Source of the DNA: a virus
Taxonomy: Duplodnaviria; Heunggongvirae; Uroviricota; Caudoviricetes
Length of the DNA: 14,053 nucleotides
Direction: 5' to 3' (one strand)
IMG/VR virus record: IMGVR_UViG_2617270944_000005
A model generated the notes under the pieces. It saw only the letters and a list, made by a program, of their open reading frames with translations. It did no database searches and had not been told where the DNA came from. Positions within the stretch are counted from its first letter, which is position 1. Each line of letters opens with the position of its first letter. The position numbers were made by a program, and so were the translations under genes. Shown piece by piece: positions 1,532 to 14,053 of this stretch.

Positions 1532-1741
1532 TTAATTTGAATACAATGCAATTCTCGAGGACTGAAGTTTCTCGCAATTAAAATTTATCAGTTTTACTTT
1601 CTGCTCTCTGGAAACGCCTGCTTCTTTTTTACCTGAGAGCATTTTTTCGCATTCTGATTTCGTTAGTTTAGATTTTGAATATCTTGTCCAGTTAGTAGGA
1701 GTGCCACCTTCCTTTTCAATAGTGGCGGTAATTTTATACAT
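1532..1741 (-). CDS. ydaC: Small prophage protein YdaC-like (DUF1187-type), 69 aa
   Basis: Start chosen at MYKITATIEKEGG, preceded by a GGAGGTG Shine-Dalgarno; ORF track shows a longer 93-aa version from 1813. Start overlaps the ralR stop by 8 nt. Confidence 0.75.
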   Translation of the reverse strand: MYKITATIEKEGGTPTNWTRYSKSKLTKSECEKMLSGKKEAGVSREQKVKLINFNCEKLQSSRIALYSN

Positions 1742-1928
1742 GAACACCTCCATTATTATTTCCAGTGGTTCGTTTATTCCATCTTTCGAGTGCTTCTTTT
1801 TCACTTCCACCATAACCGGTTCGGGATTCGCATCCGTTACACTTCGCTCGGTAATATCCTGAAATGGCTTTCACCGTTACTGATGGACAACCACAAAATG
1901 GACATGGTTTAACATTGTCATATCTCAT
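1734..1928 (-). CDS. ralR: Restriction alleviation protein Lar / RalR (reported DNase toxin of a type I TA pair), 64 aa
   Basis: Sequence MRYDNVKPCPFCGCPSVTVKAISGYYRAKCNGCESRTGYGG with a CxxC...CxxC pattern matches the Lar/RalR family as I recall it; start taken at MRYDN (no strong SD, so the start is uncertain; in-frame alternatives at 1940 and 1967). Confidence 0.8.
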   Translation of the reverse strand: MRYDNVKPCPFCGCPSVTVKAISGYYRAKCNGCESRTGYGGSEKEALERWNKRTTGNNNGGVHV

Positions 1929-1984
1929 AATTTTTCTCATAAAAAATATTTCAAGTTGGCGGTGCATTACCCCGCCAGGCTGAA

Positions 1985-2794
1985 TTATTCCTCTGAATTA
2001 TCGATTACACTGTATTCCCCGGTTAATACAGAGGAATCTGCAGGATCGATTGTCAGTGGTTCCTTTTCATCCATTGATACTGCACGCTGGATCTCAATTG
2101 ATACGGGCAGATATTTGAACAGGCGACGAATAGCCGTTTTCTTTGCCATTTCTTCCCAGTGAGTTACCCACGGCCCGTTATTACCAGCTTTACTCAGGCT
2201 GCGCACCAGCTCAATCTGTTTGCGCGTCATAACTTCAAACTGAGTACCTCCGTCTTTCAGTCTTGCGACAGCATAGACGTGGGTAACCGGGGCATCTTCG
2301 TTTTCTCCCGGGCGGTGTATTAACTTTTCATCAAGGCCAAATTCGAAGCTAAACTCGTCACCTTCACGGACAACACGGGCTGACAGGCTGGCGATTTGAC
2401 CAGAACGGCGAGCCAGATCAATCATGCCGCGATAGCCAATGATTAGCTGAACGTTCTTTTTACCGCTCTTTTCGTTTTTATTACCAAAAGGCAGTAAATA
2501 TGCATGACCGAGGGCGCTACCTGGCTCAAGTCCGAGCTGTGAACACTGTACGATCGCACTGACAAAACTCATAGTGTCACAGTTTCCTAACGCCGGAACT
2601 TTACGAATTTCTGTGGTGGCGATACGGATCATACGTTCAGCCGTCATATGGCGTGGAAGAGCTGCTGCCAGTTGCTCTTTCATTGATGGCTGGTTAATAA
2701 AACTAATCACGTCGCTATTTTTAACTGCTGCTGGTGCACGGTTTCCCTGAGTTTTTTGCAGATCGGCTTTTGCGATTGGTGGTTGCTTAGTCAT
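1985..2794 (-). CDS. recT: Recombination protein RecT (single-strand annealing protein), 269 aa
   Basis: Starts [24 protein letters not shown], matching RecT; start is the third in-frame ATG of the 288-aa ORF; overlaps the recE stop by 8 nt. Confidence 0.95.
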
Positions 2795-5387
2795 TTGCAT
2801 ATTCCTTAGCCCAGCGGGGCAGTGATAATGTCTTAATAGCTGGCCATTCATCGGTATTCAGGCAGTCAGACAGGGTTCGCAGATTGCGGTGATATTCCTG
2901 TTGACCTGCCAGTTTTGCTTCTTCGCCCATCATGAAAATTTCAACCGGATAACGTCCGCATTCAATAGTTGTGCTGGCAACCAGAAAAACGAAAGTTGGC
3001 TGCACTCCAAACTGTGCTTCATAACCGTCACTGTAGAACGCATCCTGAACGTGATAGCGGTAGTCGTAATAAGCGGTTTTGAATCGTTGAATATCCGCCG
3101 TAGTTTTCACGTCCATGATCCAGTGAAATTCAGGGATAATTTTGTCCGGACGGCACCGACACAAAATTCCTGTTTCAGGATCTTCCCAGTAAATTGATGA
3201 TTCAGCGTGTCCGGCGCTTTCAACAAGCCATTGCCCCAGCGGCAAAGCCATAACGCTTTGATACATGAGTTCAATTTTCCGGCCTTCTTCCGCAGTGATA
3301 ACCGTTTTTCCTGTGCTTGCGCATTCCATCAGAAACGCTTTCTCTTCTTCTTTTCCGGCGTTTGTACGGCGGTTAAATTCAGGTGCTACGATAAAGCGGT
3401 TACTGAATTCTTCCGGTTCAAGTACCCGGCAGTGGAAAGCAGTTCCTAAATCGAGCGTTTTTGTCTTTGTGGTGTCCACGGGGGCATTTTTACGCCACAA
3501 ATATAGTGCCGGAGTATCAGCAATGTCATCGAGCTGAGACTTACTGATACCGGGACCCGCGTGGTAATTCTCATTCGAAATTCCGTAATAAATACCTGGC
3601 TCTATGTCTTCTACGATTACGGGATCTGCGACTTCGCCAGTTTCATCACTGCAATCGCGATGCGGATCGCTGCCAGCATTCTCATTGTGCGGATGTTCAG
3701 CGCCTTCCATTTCCTCCGGATCATTTTCCTTAGCTTCAACCTGACTCTCTTCATCGAATGTTTCCTGGTATGTTGCGTCGCCCATCACCGCACCACAGTC
3801 AGGGCAGTTATCCCCGCCAGTCTGGCCGCAGGCATTGCAGGCTATTTCCGGTTCCTGTTGCACTACTGGCTCAGGTTGATTCATATCTGGGCTGGTTTTT
3901 TCCGTTTCTGGCTGGTTCTGGTACACACAATCGCGAGTCTGGATCCCCTTTACCCATTTCGGATCGTTCGGGTCGCTAATTCCGTCAACAAATTCACCAC
4001 GTGATGCAGCAAGCAATTTATCGGCATCGACAGGATTTTTTGATGGAATGTTTTTCCGGGCTTCATGGAGTTCTGCCCGCAGTTCCTGATATTTCGCATC
4101 AACAGAATTTACCTGTGACTGAGCATCCAGCGGCTGCGTGTCCTGATGATGTTCAGTTGCGTCCGGTTCCATTGTTTCAGCCTCTCCCTGTTCAACTGCC
4201 GTTGTTCCAGATGGTTGCGGTTTTTCTTCATCATCCTGTTTTCCTTCTTCTGTTACTCGCTGCGGCATCGGGGCAGAGGAGCGACCGCAGGCAATATCCA
4301 CGATTTCCGGATCAGGGTTGGCATGATCGGTTTCAGTCAGTACTTTGTTCAGATATTCAGTGACGTGCGCGGGGATGACCTCGATCCCAATTGGTGCTTC
4401 TTTTACGGACGCAACCACGATGGCGCGGGAATAATCCAGCCCGCCAGGCATGGTGATGAATTTGTCGCGGAAAACAGAAAAGGGCGGTTTATTTTCAGCG
4501 ATAATTTCCTCAATGCGTTTAGCGTGTGCCGGATGAAGGTTATAGATGTCCAGATCCATTGAACGGGCCAGTACGCCAGTGGCTACGTCGCGCGCCAGTG
4601 ACGTCAGATCGTGTACGAAACCTTCGCCGCGATCGGTGAGGTTTCCGCCGCCAGCATTAGCACCGGAAGCCGTGCAAGTGATGTGTGAAACACGATTACC
4701 CTTCATCCACTCTTTTGTCAGCAGTCCTCGATCGGTGTAGTCAGCGTTCAGGTATGCTTCGAAAAAAGCAGTTATCAGTCCCAGGTTTGAATTACCAGGA
4801 TTAGGGAAAACTTTGTCAGTGTCACGAACCAGTTTGTGGAGTTCGCGAATTTCCAGCGGGTCGAGCAGGCTGGTTTTGTGGGAAACAGCCAGGGCAGTAA
4901 CAGCCGGTAGTTCTTCAGCCCGAGCAATGTGTAATGCCTGGAGTCCGTCGCGTGAAACGTGCGTTACCGGTTTTTCGCTGCCGTGTTGAGCAAGCCAACG
5001 AATGGGCAGTTCCTGGCCAGAAATTGGGAGTAGCATATTCTCCTCAATCTCAGTCATGTCTTCGCCGTTGACGTTGGTATTGCCTTGATAGTGAGCGTTG
5101 TCTGGTGCTGCTCCCGGTTTTAGTTCCCATGTCATGGAGTCTTTGCTGAGTTGATAGCGTTCACTCCAGGTAAAATCGATCTCACCTTCAGCGGGCAGGT
5201 CATTAACGACAGGAAAATTCGTGGCAACAGCTTTAAAATAGCTGCTCAGTTTTTTACCTGACTTAACGATCAGGTAGTCCAGAGTGGCACAGGTCGATTC
5301 AAAATCGTTGCTTGCCCACAGGACGACGTCAGGTTCACCGGATGATTTTTTCGCTTTCCGTAACAGGAAGAGTGGTTTTGTGCTCAT
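2787..5387 (-). CDS. recE: Exodeoxyribonuclease VIII (RecE), 866 aa
   Basis: 866-aa ORF starting [24 protein letters not shown]; acidic low-complexity central region and a conserved C-terminal nuclease part; directly upstream of recT as in the Rac recET operon. Confidence 0.95.
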
Positions 5388-6230: not shown

Positions 6231-6671
6231 AATTATCTCCATTTTTACAAATGAACTTTGTTGATGCGGTGTCTGGTGCCTCCAGGTGACTGCAACCAGT
6301 TAACAATTACAGTCGGCTTTCCCACCCAAACCAATAAGGACTAACATGACTTTTAACTGTGCCACGTGCGCTTAGCCGCATTCACCGCATCACAAAATTC
6401 ACTTTAAAAAGGGCGGACATCAGCCGAACTTCAAGAAAAAAACTGATGCCGCCAGGACTACACACAGCAATGTCGTTATTTACAACCGGAGGCGCACTCC
6501 CTCCATTTAAATTTAACAGACAAGACCGACTCTTTATGGATATCGGAAATGCGCCTTCGTGTTGTGCCCGGTTTTATTTCACCACCTCCGGGCTTCGGTG
6601 GTCTCGGCTATACCCCTACAGCGAGAGCTTGTGTTAACATTTCAATACCCTTACAGTTGAGAGTTATTGAT

Positions 6672-7457: not shown

Positions 7458-7623
7458 CTTATCTCTCCCCTTAACGCCGGGTGGCGGAACTAACTGCTGC
7501 ACTGCAAAATTTGAATCCCGCCGTCATGTTCTTACGCCTCGGGCTGGCTACTTAACCCCTGACCACTGCCTGGTAACTCGAAGTATTGCCCTGCATTCTG
7601 TGGGGCGGGGTGGGTGGCAGGCA

Positions 7624-7743: not shown

Positions 7744-8163
7744 TTAAGAGGCTTTTTGTTTTTTCTTTCGTGCTAACTCTTCGTAAATTGCATTGTACTT
7801 CTGTTTTTTCTCTTCAAGAGTTTTTAAAAGTTCATCTGTCTCACTGTCAGGGAGCTCGTCCAGAAGGTCAATGATGATTTTTTGTCTTGGATTTAACTCC
7901 TGATAGAAACGTACCTGTCCACTTTCTTCTGTATCCTCTCCCAAAAGATAGGTTGGTGTTGTTCCTATTAGTGTTGCTAATTCCCTTAATTTCTCCCGGC
8001 GAGGAATTGTTTCGCCATTAAACCATTTGCTAACCGCTTTTGGTGTTAATTTCATTCGACGGGCAATTTCTGCCTGCCTTCCATGTTGTTCATAACCAGC
8101 GTTTTCACAGGCTAGCGCAAGCCTACTGGCGAACTCTTTACGCGCTTTATCTTCATGAACCAT
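7744..8163 (-). CDS. racR: Prophage repressor, XRE-family HTH (RacR-like, cI analogue), 139 aa
   Basis: HTH region QAEIARRMKLTPKAVSKWFNGETIPRREKLRELATLIG; divergent from the cro-like ydaS; no alternative standard start upstream in frame before a stop. Confidence 0.85.
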   Translation of the reverse strand: MVHEDKARKEFASRLALACENAGYEQHGRQAEIARRMKLTPKAVSKWFNGETIPRREKLRELATLIGTTPTYLLGEDTEESGQVRFYQELNPRQKIIIDLLDELPDSETDELLKTLEEKKQKYNAIYEELARKKKQKAS

Positions 8164-10858: not shown

Positions 10859-13033
10859 ATGATTATGAGTGAAAATGATACAACCCCAAAGAAGTCTACA
10901 AGCCAGATTAACAAAGCGGTATTCTTTACATCTGCTTTGCTAATTTTCCTTCTTGTCGCCTTTGCCGCCGTATTCCCGGATGTCGCCGACAAAAATTTTA
11001 AACTACTTCAGCAACAAATCTTCACGAATGCCAGCTGGTTCTACATACTTGCTGTGGCCCTGATTTTACTGAGCGTCACGTTCCTTGGACTCTCACGTTA
11101 CGGTGATATAAAGCTGGGCCCAGACCATGCGCAGCCTGATTTCAGCTACCACTCCTGGTTCGCGATGCTTTTTTCGGCAGGGATGGGGATCGGCCTGATG
11201 TTCTTTGGCGTTGCCGAACCTGTGATGCATTATCTTTCGCCACCTGTCGGCACTCCAGAGACCGTTGCGGCAGCGAAGGAAGCCATGCGCCTGACGTTCT
11301 TCCACTGGGGTCTGCACGCATGGGCAATTTATGCCATCGTGGCGCTGATTCTGGCCTTTTTCAGTTACCGTCACGGTCTGCCTTTAACGCTGCGTTCTGC
11401 GCTCTATCCCATTATCGGCGATCGCATTTACGGGCCTATAGGCCACGCGGTTGATATCTTCGCCGTGATAGGCACTGTCTTTGGCGTTGCAACATCGCTG
11501 GGTTACGGTGTATTGCAGGTGAATGCCGGTTTGAACCATCTTTTCGGCGTGCCCATCAATGAAACGGTACAGGTCATTTTGATCGTGGTCATCACGGGGT
11601 TAGCGACGATTTCGGTGGTGTCCGGCCTGGACAAGGGAATACGCATCCTGTCTGAGCTTAATCTGGGCCTGGCGGTGTTGCTCCTGGCGCTGGTCTTGTG
11701 CCTGGGTCCCACTGTGCTTCTGCTGAAGTCATTTGTGGAAAATACGGGTGGTTATCTGTCGGAACTGGTGAGTAAAACGTTCAACCTTTACGCGTATGAA
11801 CCCAAGTCGAGCAACTGGCTGGGGGGCTGGACATTATTATACTGGGGATGGTGGCTTTCATGGTCGCCGTTTGTAGGTATGTTCATTGCACGCGTTTCCC
11901 GCGGCAGGACAATTCGTGAGTTCGTGACTGGCGTGTTGTTTGTTCCCGCCGGCTTTACGCTCATGTGGATGACGGTGTTTGGAAACAGCGCCATCTATCT
12001 CATCATGAACCAGGGCGCCACTGACCTCGCCAATACCGTTCAGCAGGATGTTGCGCTTGCCCTGTTTAATTTCCTGGAGCATTTCCCGTTCTCTTCCGTG
12101 CTGTCATTCATTGCAATGGCGATGGTCATCGTCTTCTTTGTAACGTCTGCTGATTCGGGGGCAATGGTTGTGGATACTCTGGCATCAGGTGGGGTGGCAA
12201 ACACGCCCGTCTGGCAGCGAATTTTCTGGGCATCGCTCATGGGCGTTGTTGCTATTGCCCTGCTGATCGCAGGGGGGCTGAGTGCGTTGCAAACCGTAAC
12301 GATAGCGAGTGCATTGCCCTTCTCAGTTATCTTATTAATATCCATATACGGACTGTTAAAAGCCCTGCGTCGGGATTTGACCAAGCGTGAAAGCCTTAGC
12401 ATGGCGACTATTGCTCCTACGGCTGCACGTAACCCAATTCCCTGGCAGAGAAGGTTACGCAATATCGCGTATTTGCCGAAGCGCTCTCTTGTGAAACGTT
12501 TTATGGACGACATTATCCAACCCGCCATGACGCTGGTTCAGGAGGAACTTAACAAGCAGGGAACGATAAGCCACATCAGTGACGCCGCCGAGGATCGTAT
12601 TCGCCTTGAAGTCGATTTGGGCAACGAGCTGAATTATATATATGAAGTGAGGCTTCGCGGGTATAACTCACCGACCTTCGCGCTCGCTGCGCTGGATAAT
12701 GATGAGCAGCAGAGTGAACAACATCGATATTATCGCGCTGAAGTCTATCTCAAAGAGGGCGGCCAAAATTATGATGTAATGGGCTGGAATCAGGAACTGA
12801 ACCGCCCCGGGTTTCCTGGAGAGTGTTTTATCTGTGAACTCAGGCTGCCAGATCATCGTTTCCGATGGAAGCATAATAAGCTTTTTCTGCTTCTGCCGGA
12901 GGAGTATGGCCCAGCCTTCCCAGCAATCGTCGATTGTTATACCAGTCCACCCACGTTAGTGTGGCCAGTTCCACTTCTGCACGGTTTTTCCAGCTCTTAC
13001 GGTGTATTACCTCCGCTTTGTAAAGACCATTGA
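10859..13033 (+). CDS. BCCT-family transporter, BetT-like (choline/osmoprotectant), 3' end interrupted by IS insertion; about 646 native residues followed by an IS-derived out-of-context tail
   Basis: BCCT signature GWTLLYWGWWLSWSPFVGMFIARVSRGRTIREF; collinear similarity to E. coli BetT along its length, including the cytoplasmic C-terminal domain, up to ...YDVMGWNQEL, where the IS terminal repeat begins (12798); roughly 30 residues of the expected C-terminus are missing. An alternative start is the ATG at 10865. Confidence 0.8.
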   Translation: MIMSENDTTPKKSTSQINKAVFFTSALLIFLLVAFAAVFPDVADKNFKLLQQQIFTNASWFYILAVALILLSVTFLGLSRYGDIKLGPDHAQPDFSYHSWFAMLFSAGMGIGLMFFGVAEPVMHYLSPPVGTPETVAAAKEAMRLTFFHWGLHAWAIYAIVALILAFFSYRHGLPLTLRSALYPIIGDRIYGPIGHAVDIFAVIGTVFGVATSLGYGVLQVNAGLNHLFGVPINETVQVILIVVITGLATISVVSGLDKGIRILSELNLGLAVLLLALVLCLGPTVLLLKSFVENTGGYLSELVSKTFNLYAYEPKSSNWLGGWTLLYWGWWLSWSPFVGMFIARVSRGRTIREFVTGVLFVPAGFTLMWMTVFGNSAIYLIMNQGATDLANTVQQDVALALFNFLEHFPFSSVLSFIAMAMVIVFFVTSADSGAMVVDTLASGGVANTPVWQRIFWASLMGVVAIALLIAGGLSALQTVTIASALPFSVILLISIYGLLKALRRDLTKRESLSMATIAPTAARNPIPWQRRLRNIAYLPKRSLVKRFMDDIIQPAMTLVQEELNKQGTISHISDAAEDRIRLEVDLGNELNYIYEVRLRGYNSPTFALAALDNDEQQSEQHRYYRAEVYLKEGGQNYDVMGWNQELNRPGFPGECFICELRLPDHRFRWKHNKLFLLLPEEYGPAFPAIVDCYTSPPTLVWPVPLLHGFSSSYGVLPPLCKDH

Positions 13034-13730
13034 TGCTCTCAGCCATCGCGTTGTCATACGAGTCGCCTGTACTCCCTGTTGATGCCAGTAATCCGGCTTC
13101 TTTTAGTCGCTCCGTATAGGCCAGTGACACATACTGAGAGCCTTTATCGCTGTGATGGATGGTGCCAGACGGACGACGGGCCCACAACGCCTGCTCCAGC
13201 GCATCCAGCACGAATGTCGTTTCCATAGACGATGAGACCCGCCACCCCACGATGTATCCGGCAAACACATCAATGATAAACGCCACATAGACGAAGCCCT
13301 GCCATGTGCTGACGTAAGTAAAATCAGCCACCCACAGCTGGTCAGGTCGTTCTGCCACGAACTGACGGTTTACGCGGTCGCCTGCGGCAACGGCTTTCCG
13401 GCTGATGGTCGTACGGACCTTTTTACCCCGGAGAACACCGGCAAGTCCCATAACCGCCATGAGACGTGCCACTGTACATCTGGCCACCCTGATTCCTTCC
13501 CGTAACAACTGACGCCAGACTTTACGCACACCGTACACCTGATGATTTTCATCGTATACGCGCTGTATCTCTCTCTTCAGCCAGTCGTCGTGCTGCGCAC
13601 GGGCACTGCGTTTATCCGGATGATGTCGCTGTTGCTGACAATGGTAATACGTTGACGGGGCAATATGCAGTTCGCTGCATACCGGTCCGACCCCGTACTG
13701 CTCACGCAGCTTATCCAGCAGTGGCATCAT
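12840..13730 (-). CDS. IS3-family transposase OrfB (DDE integrase-like catalytic domain), 296 aa
   Basis: DDE transposase hallmarks (WVADFTYV ... HSDKGSQY ... [15 protein letters not shown]); in the -1 frame relative to orfA, overlapping it by 4 nt. Confidence 0.9.
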
Positions 13731-14053
13731 TTTTTCCAGAGGCGGTCGAACTCCGCCTTCGCAAAATAAGCGGAAGCCTGGCGAAGGATATCGTTACTGC
13801 GGCGCAGTTCACGATTTTCACGTTCCAGCTCTTTCAGACGCTGACGTTCCGCGCTGGTGAGCCCACCATCACCGCCCCCGGTATCCCGCTCATGCTGGCG
13901 AACCCAGACACGCAGAGTCTCCGGCGTACAGCCAATCTTTGGGGCAATGGAACAAATTGCCGCCCACTGTGAGTCATATTCATCCTGACTTTCCAGAACC
14001 ATACGAATCGCCCGCTGACGGACTTCGGGGGAAAAACGAGTATTTTTAGTCAT
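13727..14053 (-). CDS. IS3-family transposase OrfA (HTH plus leucine-zipper region), 108 aa
   Basis: [30 protein letters not shown]... with a heptad-like [20 protein letters not shown] segment; ends in an A6 run directly before its stop, at the orfB overlap. Confidence 0.9.

Follow-up and report, generated by a model that had tools for sequence, protein, structure and literature searches.

The ralR locus of a Rac-type prophage encodes RalA antisense to rcbA, a probable protein-coding gene

The interval singled out in the original prediction (1734-1984) is ralR (lar) of a Rac-type prophage together with the 56-bp spacer upstream of the gene, and the locus is the published RalR/RalA system already described by Guo et al. 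in 2014 (PMC4041452). The window, here meaning the whole 14,053-nt stretch of viral DNA that was analyzed (IMG/VR record IMGVR_UViG_2617270944_000005), carries the small RNA RalA at 1557-1735 on the + strand; the identity and placement of both the locus and the RNA are practically certain. The explanation that we regard as likely for the locus as a whole joins ralR, RalA as its partner, the published pairing between the two, and a probable cis-antisense role for RalA. Comparative data that were unavailable in 2014 indicate that rcbA, the gene opposite RalA, is maintained as a protein gene, and they show no conservation of the pairing site or the fold of RalA beyond the Rac lineage of E. coli. 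[quoted passage not shown]

Gene order and identity with the K-12 Rac prophage

The start of the window is occupied by a Rac-type prophage, in which intR (1-1236), xisR (1238-1453), rcbA/ydaC (1532-1741), ralR (1734-1928), recT (1985-2794, with its stop codon beginning at 1985), and recE (2787-5387) all lie on the − strand. The coding sequence of ralR, described beforehand as intact, was an uninterrupted ORF of 64 codons that runs from the annotated start at 1928 (MRYDNVKP...) to a TAA at 1734-1736 in both the ORF list and the raw sequence; it encodes a 64-amino-acid zinc ribbon-type protein with four Cys residues (C9, C12, C30, and C33). The tight packing noted at the outset was also confirmed. 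The start codon of rcbA/ydaC occupies 1741-1739, so that 8 nt (1734-1741) are common to rcbA and ralR, and the gap to recT measures 56 bp (1929-1984, −) and is presumed to be the ralR 5′ leader. A consensus scan identified a σ70-like sequence on the − strand (2026 to 1997; 9/12 matches) in the 3′ end of recT, just upstream of this spacer, which may serve as a promoter.

[quoted passage not shown] Only one mismatch fell within 1500-2000, at position 1971 in the ralR-recT spacer (C here, A in K-12), and the RalR protein is thus 100% identical to that of K-12 (b1348). In the K-12 annotation, ralA (b4714), rcbA (b1347), and ralR (b1348) occupy identical relative positions. The locus is therefore the same as that of K-12 Rac (PMC4041452; RF02694), with RalA, ralR, and rcbA 100% identical and the gene order and 16-nt sites shared; the differences are the single spacer base and the divergence of the host prophage beyond 7617. 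The assignment as a RalR/Lar locus stood on two grounds, identity to b1348 and a match to Pfam family PF14354 (Lar_restr_allev; 53.5 bits; cut-off, 28.6; E value, 2.9e−14). The locus was present in about 1,925 of 5,426 complete E. coli genomes.

Position and anatomy of RalA

A search of the whole window against Rfam returned one relevant match, RF02694 (RalA), with a score of 225.1 bits (gathering score, 170) over the full length of the model (positions 1 to 179). RalA, which the original prediction could not place from sequence alone, could therefore be positioned exactly, as a 179-nt RNA at 1557-1735 (+). Comparison of the published RNA with 1500-2100, a check put forward with the original prediction, recovered a sequence identical to K-12 ncRNA ralA (b4714), and no mismatches to K-12 were present across 1500-1970. 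It had been argued that any antitoxin RNA must overlap coding sequence, and the RalA sequence is indeed contained entirely in rcbA, in antisense orientation. Of the expectation that a cognate antisense RNA would be found at the locus, the presence of the RNA was borne out, but it is antisense to rcbA and not to ralR: RalA shares only 1734-1735 with the flagged interval, 2 nt of the ralR stop codon. The RNA gene (+) and the toxin gene (−) are on opposite strands, and the evidence for the transcript comes from the literature.

In the study of Guo et al., primer extension placed the start of RalA 62 nt ahead of the 16-nt repeat, and the 3′ end was a prediction (PMC4041452). According to PMC7967276, the primary transcription start falls at the 5′ end (GAGGACTGAAGT), and the 5′ end in the window (GAGGACUGAAGU) agrees with it. 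Accumulation of RalA is very low (PMC7967276), and RNA sequencing detected it in all eight conditions tested (PMC12266141); a full-text literature search found no report of RalA in RIL-seq data.

From the sequence and an alignment of variants, TACAAT at 1542-1547 (+) was identified as a candidate −10 element that may direct ralA transcription. Four divergent E. coli variants (L093, L094, L096, and L097) have TATAAT at this position, and no convincing −35 element of the ralA promoter was seen. The + strand sequence closest to the promoter consensus (1491-1518; 10/12) was rejected, as transcription from it would start ∼30 nt too far upstream of 1557. At the other end, RalA carries a 3′ hairpin followed by GUAAUUUU (1702-1735, +), which the fold and Guo et al. 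indicate to be a predicted noncanonical terminator, with a 6-bp stem (1702-1707 paired with 1722-1727), a 14-nt loop, and four U residues. A canonical Rho-independent terminator, with a GC-rich stem, short loop, and long U tail, is lacking in RalA, and a scan of 1300-2200 on both strands found no terminator, including between ralR and rcbA. The suggested search for a promoter, a terminator, and a stretch complementary to ralR gave the candidate −10 element and a 16-nt match, with no terminator in the scan.

The minimum-free-energy fold of RalA was the Rfam consensus, and its stability was no greater than that of shuffled sequence (z = −0.26). In 16 antisense-DUF1187 sequences aligned without gaps, 71.6% of the Rfam structure was paired, with the unpaired cells contributed mostly by sequences outside the E. 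coli-like group. Covariation in these 16 sequences (0.133) did not stand out from controls in which the structure was slid along the alignment, being exceeded at +3 columns (0.154) and close to the value at +1 or −3 columns (0.116). In the same alignment, the terminator helix was broken in about half of the homologues. Citrobacter-type loci scored only 35 and 29 bits against the Rfam model. Judged from these alignments, the RalA fold is not conserved beyond one prophage lineage. One possible compensatory change was noted in the RalA 5′ stem at 1561/1592, where the window has A-U, L093 an A-C mismatch, and L096 G-C; the change at 1561 is nonsynonymous in rcbA (S to P), and this is a single case without statistical meaning.

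Published mechanism and the RalR protein

In the published model, nt 63-78 of RalA would pair with nt 123-138 of the ralR mRNA and, together with Hfq, lower the level of RalR protein and not that of the mRNA; RalA would behave as a trans-type small RNA, contacting ralR codons 41 to 46 by a 16-nt stretch of imperfect complementarity (PMC4041452). Several observations in that study are relevant here. The rcbA region protected cells from RalR even when the ydaC start codon was mutated or an early stop codon was introduced, and RalA supplied on a second plasmid neutralized RalR. Mutations in the 16-nt site abolished protection, which was restored by matching mutations in ralR. RalA lowered RalR protein without lowering ralR mRNA, and its effect required Hfq, to which binding was reported in vitro. 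The toxicity and neutralization data come from overexpression plasmids, and for most of the experiments the plasmid carried ralR and the rcbA region as a single transcript. These experiments give the best-supported picture of the capabilities of the locus, and the comparative results given here do not overturn them. The window contains ralR, RalA, and the two pairing sites, each identical to its K-12 counterpart.

The original prediction had named a missing RalA or a ralR sequence divergent at residues required for nuclease activity as evidence against the locus. RalA was present, and RalR residues 14, 37, 39, 49, 51, and 52, reported by Guo et al. (PMC4041452) to be necessary for toxicity, were those of K-12. 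In an eight-sequence RalR alignment, C12, C14, C30, and C33 were invariant, and C9 was found in all but the N-terminally aberrant P0090. AlphaFold2 modeling of RalR from eight sequences (pLDDT, 75) predicted a three-stranded sheet with a CxxC...CxxC arrangement followed by a C-terminal helix. Foldseek searches of the PDB with this model found nothing better than an E value of 0.2 and no nuclease fold; the top matches were weak and were to zinc ribbons of translation and transcription factors. A PDB sequence search with RalR and RcbA also gave no meaningful match.

These findings have to be set against the older view that RalR is chiefly the restriction-alleviation protein Lar, modulating the EcoKI type I restriction-modification system in the manner of lambda Ral, and no dedicated DNase toxin, a view to which we would give somewhat less than even weight. 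RalR belongs by sequence to the same family as Lar and lambda Ral (PF14354), NCBI names the Citrobacter homologues Lar family restriction alleviation protein, and restriction alleviation is the function associated with the work of King and Murray (1995), as cited in later literature. The gene also shares with lambda ral its place in the recombination/anti-restriction part of the lambdoid early left operon, where it adjoins recET; both the family name and this position fit the older assignment. The modeled small zinc ribbon and helix, dissimilar to nuclease folds, points the same way. However, with a pLDDT of 75 and a very small protein, the fold search is uninformative rather than negative, and on the model, DNase activity would be neither supported nor excluded. 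Further, Guo et al. reported that overproduced RalR was toxic and that RalR cleaved DNA in vitro, the cleavage by purified protein being Mg/Ca dependent and lost in K52Q, together with no effect on restriction and an identity to lambda Ral of only 24% (PMC4041452).

A premature stop codon in ralR (W50*; window position 1779) was found in E. coli strain 222 (L098) and in six viral contigs with an identical sequence pair. The resulting protein of 49 amino acids lacks residues 50 to 64, including residues 51 and 52 reported as needed for toxicity. O157:H7 strain 611 (H50), which gave an alignment of equal identity and length, may be a further carrier.

Complementarity between RalA and ralR

The published pairing site of RalA (nt 63-78, TGCTTCTTTTTTACCT) is located at 1619-1634 (+), a position derived from the distance of 62 nt between start and repeat and from the G64 and T63 mutants of Guo et al. 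and checked against the sequence. The target, nt 123-138 of the ralR mRNA in codons 41 to 46 (GSEKEA), is located at 1791-1806 (−; + strand, TGCTTCTTTTTCACTT). Between them, 14 Watson-Crick pairs, one G-U pair, and one mismatch can form, with 11 contiguous pairs. Because RalA is antisense to rcbA, this complementarity means that the sense strands of rcbA and ralR share a direct repeat, and the rcbA copy, GGT AAA AAA GAA GCA (GKKEA), and the ralR copy, AGT GAA AAA GAA GCA (SEKEA), are in the identical reading frame. A second near-complementary stretch, CTTCCTTTTCA, was identified in the loop of the RalA 3′ hairpin (1708-1718, +) and matches ralR nt 126-136 at 10 of 11 positions, or at all 11 in L093 and L094. 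Its opposite strand encodes IEKEGG, another Lys/Glu stretch, which argues that Lys/Glu codons readily yield such matches. RNA duplex-fold energies for RalA against ralR gave a very long interrupted duplex without meaning and were discarded.

The shared codons raise the alternative that the complementarity is a by-product of the Lys/Glu-rich peptides GKKEA of RcbA and SEKEA of RalR, that the conserved unit is formed by the early-left-operon proteins Lar and DUF1187/RcbA, and that toxin-antitoxin behavior appears only on overexpression; taken as a whole, we consider this unlikely. When RalA was shuffled with dinucleotides preserved, only 35 of 2,000 trials (1.75%) gave an exact run of 11 nt, which speaks against a by-product, whereas a shared 11-mer arose in 23 to 25% of trials when both proteins were kept and only synonymous codons were reshuffled, which speaks for it, as do the second match in the IEKEGG stretch, the failure to find RNA covariation, and the very low level of RalA. 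From these comparisons of codons and shuffles, the RalA-ralR match would largely follow from the shared Lys/Glu codons.

Conservation of the pairing was assessed over 48 distinct ralR/rcbA pairs. A first scan of viral contigs with YdaC had returned 80 nearly identical Rac copies, adding little diversity, and a scan of genome contigs with RalR gave only two divergent loci. The 11-mer was kept in most E. coli Rac copies, which counts against a by-product, though the mutual similarity of these copies leaves the point little weight. It was broken despite an intact ralR in four loci (L085, L091, L107, and L110). Pairing was absent from Salmonella (L112, L113, and L114) and from the Citrobacter clade (L008, L009, and L099 to L104), in which both proteins are conserved; the longest run common to the two genes in these loci was 6 to 8 nt and lay at nonhomologous positions. 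In addition, a 12-nt in-frame deletion in rcbA (L091, L115, and L116; window positions 1615-1626) eliminates 8 nt at the start of the RalA site, and its junction was found at ≥99% identity in at least 53 complete E. coli genomes. In the three deletion strains checked (CEC15, KCJ3K291, and M18), ralR was full length and carried the K-12 protein accession. Among the homologous loci compared, pairing of toxin and antitoxin was thus maintained in the E. coli Rac lineage and lost in the Salmonella and Citrobacter clades, a distribution in keeping with a by-product, and on these alignments the pairing site is not conserved beyond one prophage lineage. The location of the target, 123 nt inside the coding region, has also been called an unusual place for translational repression (PMC4147584). 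We see about even chances that the type I mechanism based on the 16-nt site is physiologically relevant.

One of the divergent copies, PP818812.1 (L097), is labeled Actinobacillus phage vB_Apl-pPE4 and carries an E. coli Rac-type ralR-rcbA-recT segment with about 91% identity. Such a segment is unexpected for a phage of Pasteurellaceae and may reflect host misassignment or contamination.

rcbA as a probable protein-coding gene

According to the conclusions of Guo et al., ydaC has no protein product (PMC4041452). The comparative data contradict this, as the pattern of substitutions is that of a protein under strong purifying selection. RcbA matched its own Pfam family, PF06688 (DUF1187), with 131.7 bits (cut-off, 20.7), and dN/dS was 0.03 to 0.12 in comparisons with eight divergent E. 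coli and phage copies. Against Citrobacter braakii, 29 synonymous changes over 39.5 sites and 34 nonsynonymous changes over 146.5 sites were counted (dN/dS, about 0.10). A strong GGAGG Shine-Dalgarno sequence, read from the sequence at 1747-1751 (−), lies 5 nt upstream of the rcbA ATG and inside the 3′ end of ralR, and the natural 12-nt deletion keeps the rcbA reading frame. DUF1187 genes were also found without ralR in lambdoid early left operons, namely, in L105 (after recT), L108, and L109 (after a Dam-type methylase gene). The coding function of the opposite strand thus accounts for the conservation of the RalA sequence.

The family match, the selection on rcbA, its ribosome binding site, and the occurrence of DUF1187 apart from ralR all favor a by-product origin of the RalA-ralR complementarity. 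Against this stand the experiments in which ydaC start and stop codon mutations left protection intact, and those in which compensatory mutations supported base pairing. A role of RcbA as a protein antitoxin of RalR was considered and set aside, given the DUF1187 genes without Lar in several prophages and the protection retained in the stop codon mutants of Guo et al. Extending the argument, the textbook RalR/RalA pair may not be a conserved RNA-protein module at all: rcbA would be a real and maintained protein gene, the 16-nt match a lineage-specific consequence of similar Lys/Glu-rich peptides, and RalA a weak antisense transcript of rcbA that acts as an antitoxin only on overexpression. We think it improbable that all of this holds; if it did, the double-strand-break phenotype of rcbA deletions would need to be reassigned among the RcbA protein, RalA, and polar effects.

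The K-12 type of rcbA encodes 69 amino acids only because the codon at 1553-1555 (−) is AGA; most variants have TGA there and encode 62 amino acids. In the TGA variants, the rcbA stop codon directly adjoins the +1 position of RalA (1557). The candidate ralA −10 element (1542-1547) falls in the final codons of the 69-amino-acid form and outside the coding sequence of the 62-amino-acid variants.

A probable cis-antisense role for RalA

Given the 8-nt overlap between ralR and rcbA and the lack of a terminator between them, the native ralR transcript must continue into rcbA, and the whole of RalA would then have a perfect complement in this transcript. On the chromosome, RalA is therefore probably a cis-antisense RNA of the ralR-rcbA message as well, or even chiefly so. 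This possibility, by way of overlapping 3′ ends, was raised in a 2014 review, which noted that the ends had not been mapped and called the locus unusual (PMC4147584).

In its stronger form, RalA would be mainly cis-antisense, forming a perfect duplex, at most 179 bp long, with the rcbA portion of the ralR-rcbA message (recE operon) and so affecting mRNA processing or rcbA translation, with the 16-nt match secondary. The position of RalA entirely within rcbA, the overlap of the two genes with no terminator-like site nearby, and the review just cited agree with this, as does the joint transcription of ralR and the rcbA region in most of the experiments of Guo et al. Three results of the same study run counter to it: RalR made from a construct said to carry only ralR was neutralized by RalA from a second plasmid, activity was recovered with compensatory changes in both 16-nt sites, and ralR mRNA levels did not drop on RalA induction. 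A mainly cis-antisense RalA is thus conceivable, with the odds leaning against it; the preferred explanation retains the published pairing beside a probable cis-antisense role.

Comparison with other type I systems

In TisB/IstR-1, ShoB/OhsC, and ZorO/OrzO, type I systems with divergently encoded antitoxins, the proposed contact is, as for RalA and ralR, a short imperfect pairing rather than full overlap. The RalA pairing comprises 16 nt, versus 18 to 21 nt in these systems, and it is placed 123 nt inside the coding region, whereas in the other three the RNA pairs in the 5′ untranslated region of the toxin mRNA. Their toxins are small membrane peptides, and RalR is a soluble zinc ribbon protein. 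RalA further differs from these RNAs in its published need for Hfq and in being fully antisense to a neighboring conserved protein gene. In having a soluble toxin that cleaves nucleic acid in place of a membrane peptide, RalR resembles SymE of the E. coli SymE/SymR system, the other type I system with such a toxin. SymR, however, is a true cis-antisense RNA over the 5′ end of symE, and the substrate of SymE is RNA, in contrast to the DNA reported for RalR.

Other features of the prophage

Beyond position 7617, the prophage differs from K-12 Rac in having another immunity region, with an HTH_3 repressor gene at 7744-8163 (−), and other replication genes. Within the collinear part, 6406-6503 (−) is the counterpart of the K-12 small RNA KilS (b4833), with one mismatch at 6502; this region gave no Rfam match at gathering thresholds. 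The place of K-12 trkG is taken by a BCCT betaine/choline-type transporter gene (10859-13033, +). An IS3-family element was identified at 12840-14053 (−), consisting of orfA (13727-14053) and orfB (12840-13730), and an Rfam ALIL frameshift pseudoknot was found in it at 13656-13772 (121.5 bits). The element overlaps the 3′ end of the BCCT transporter ORF, which it appears to interrupt.
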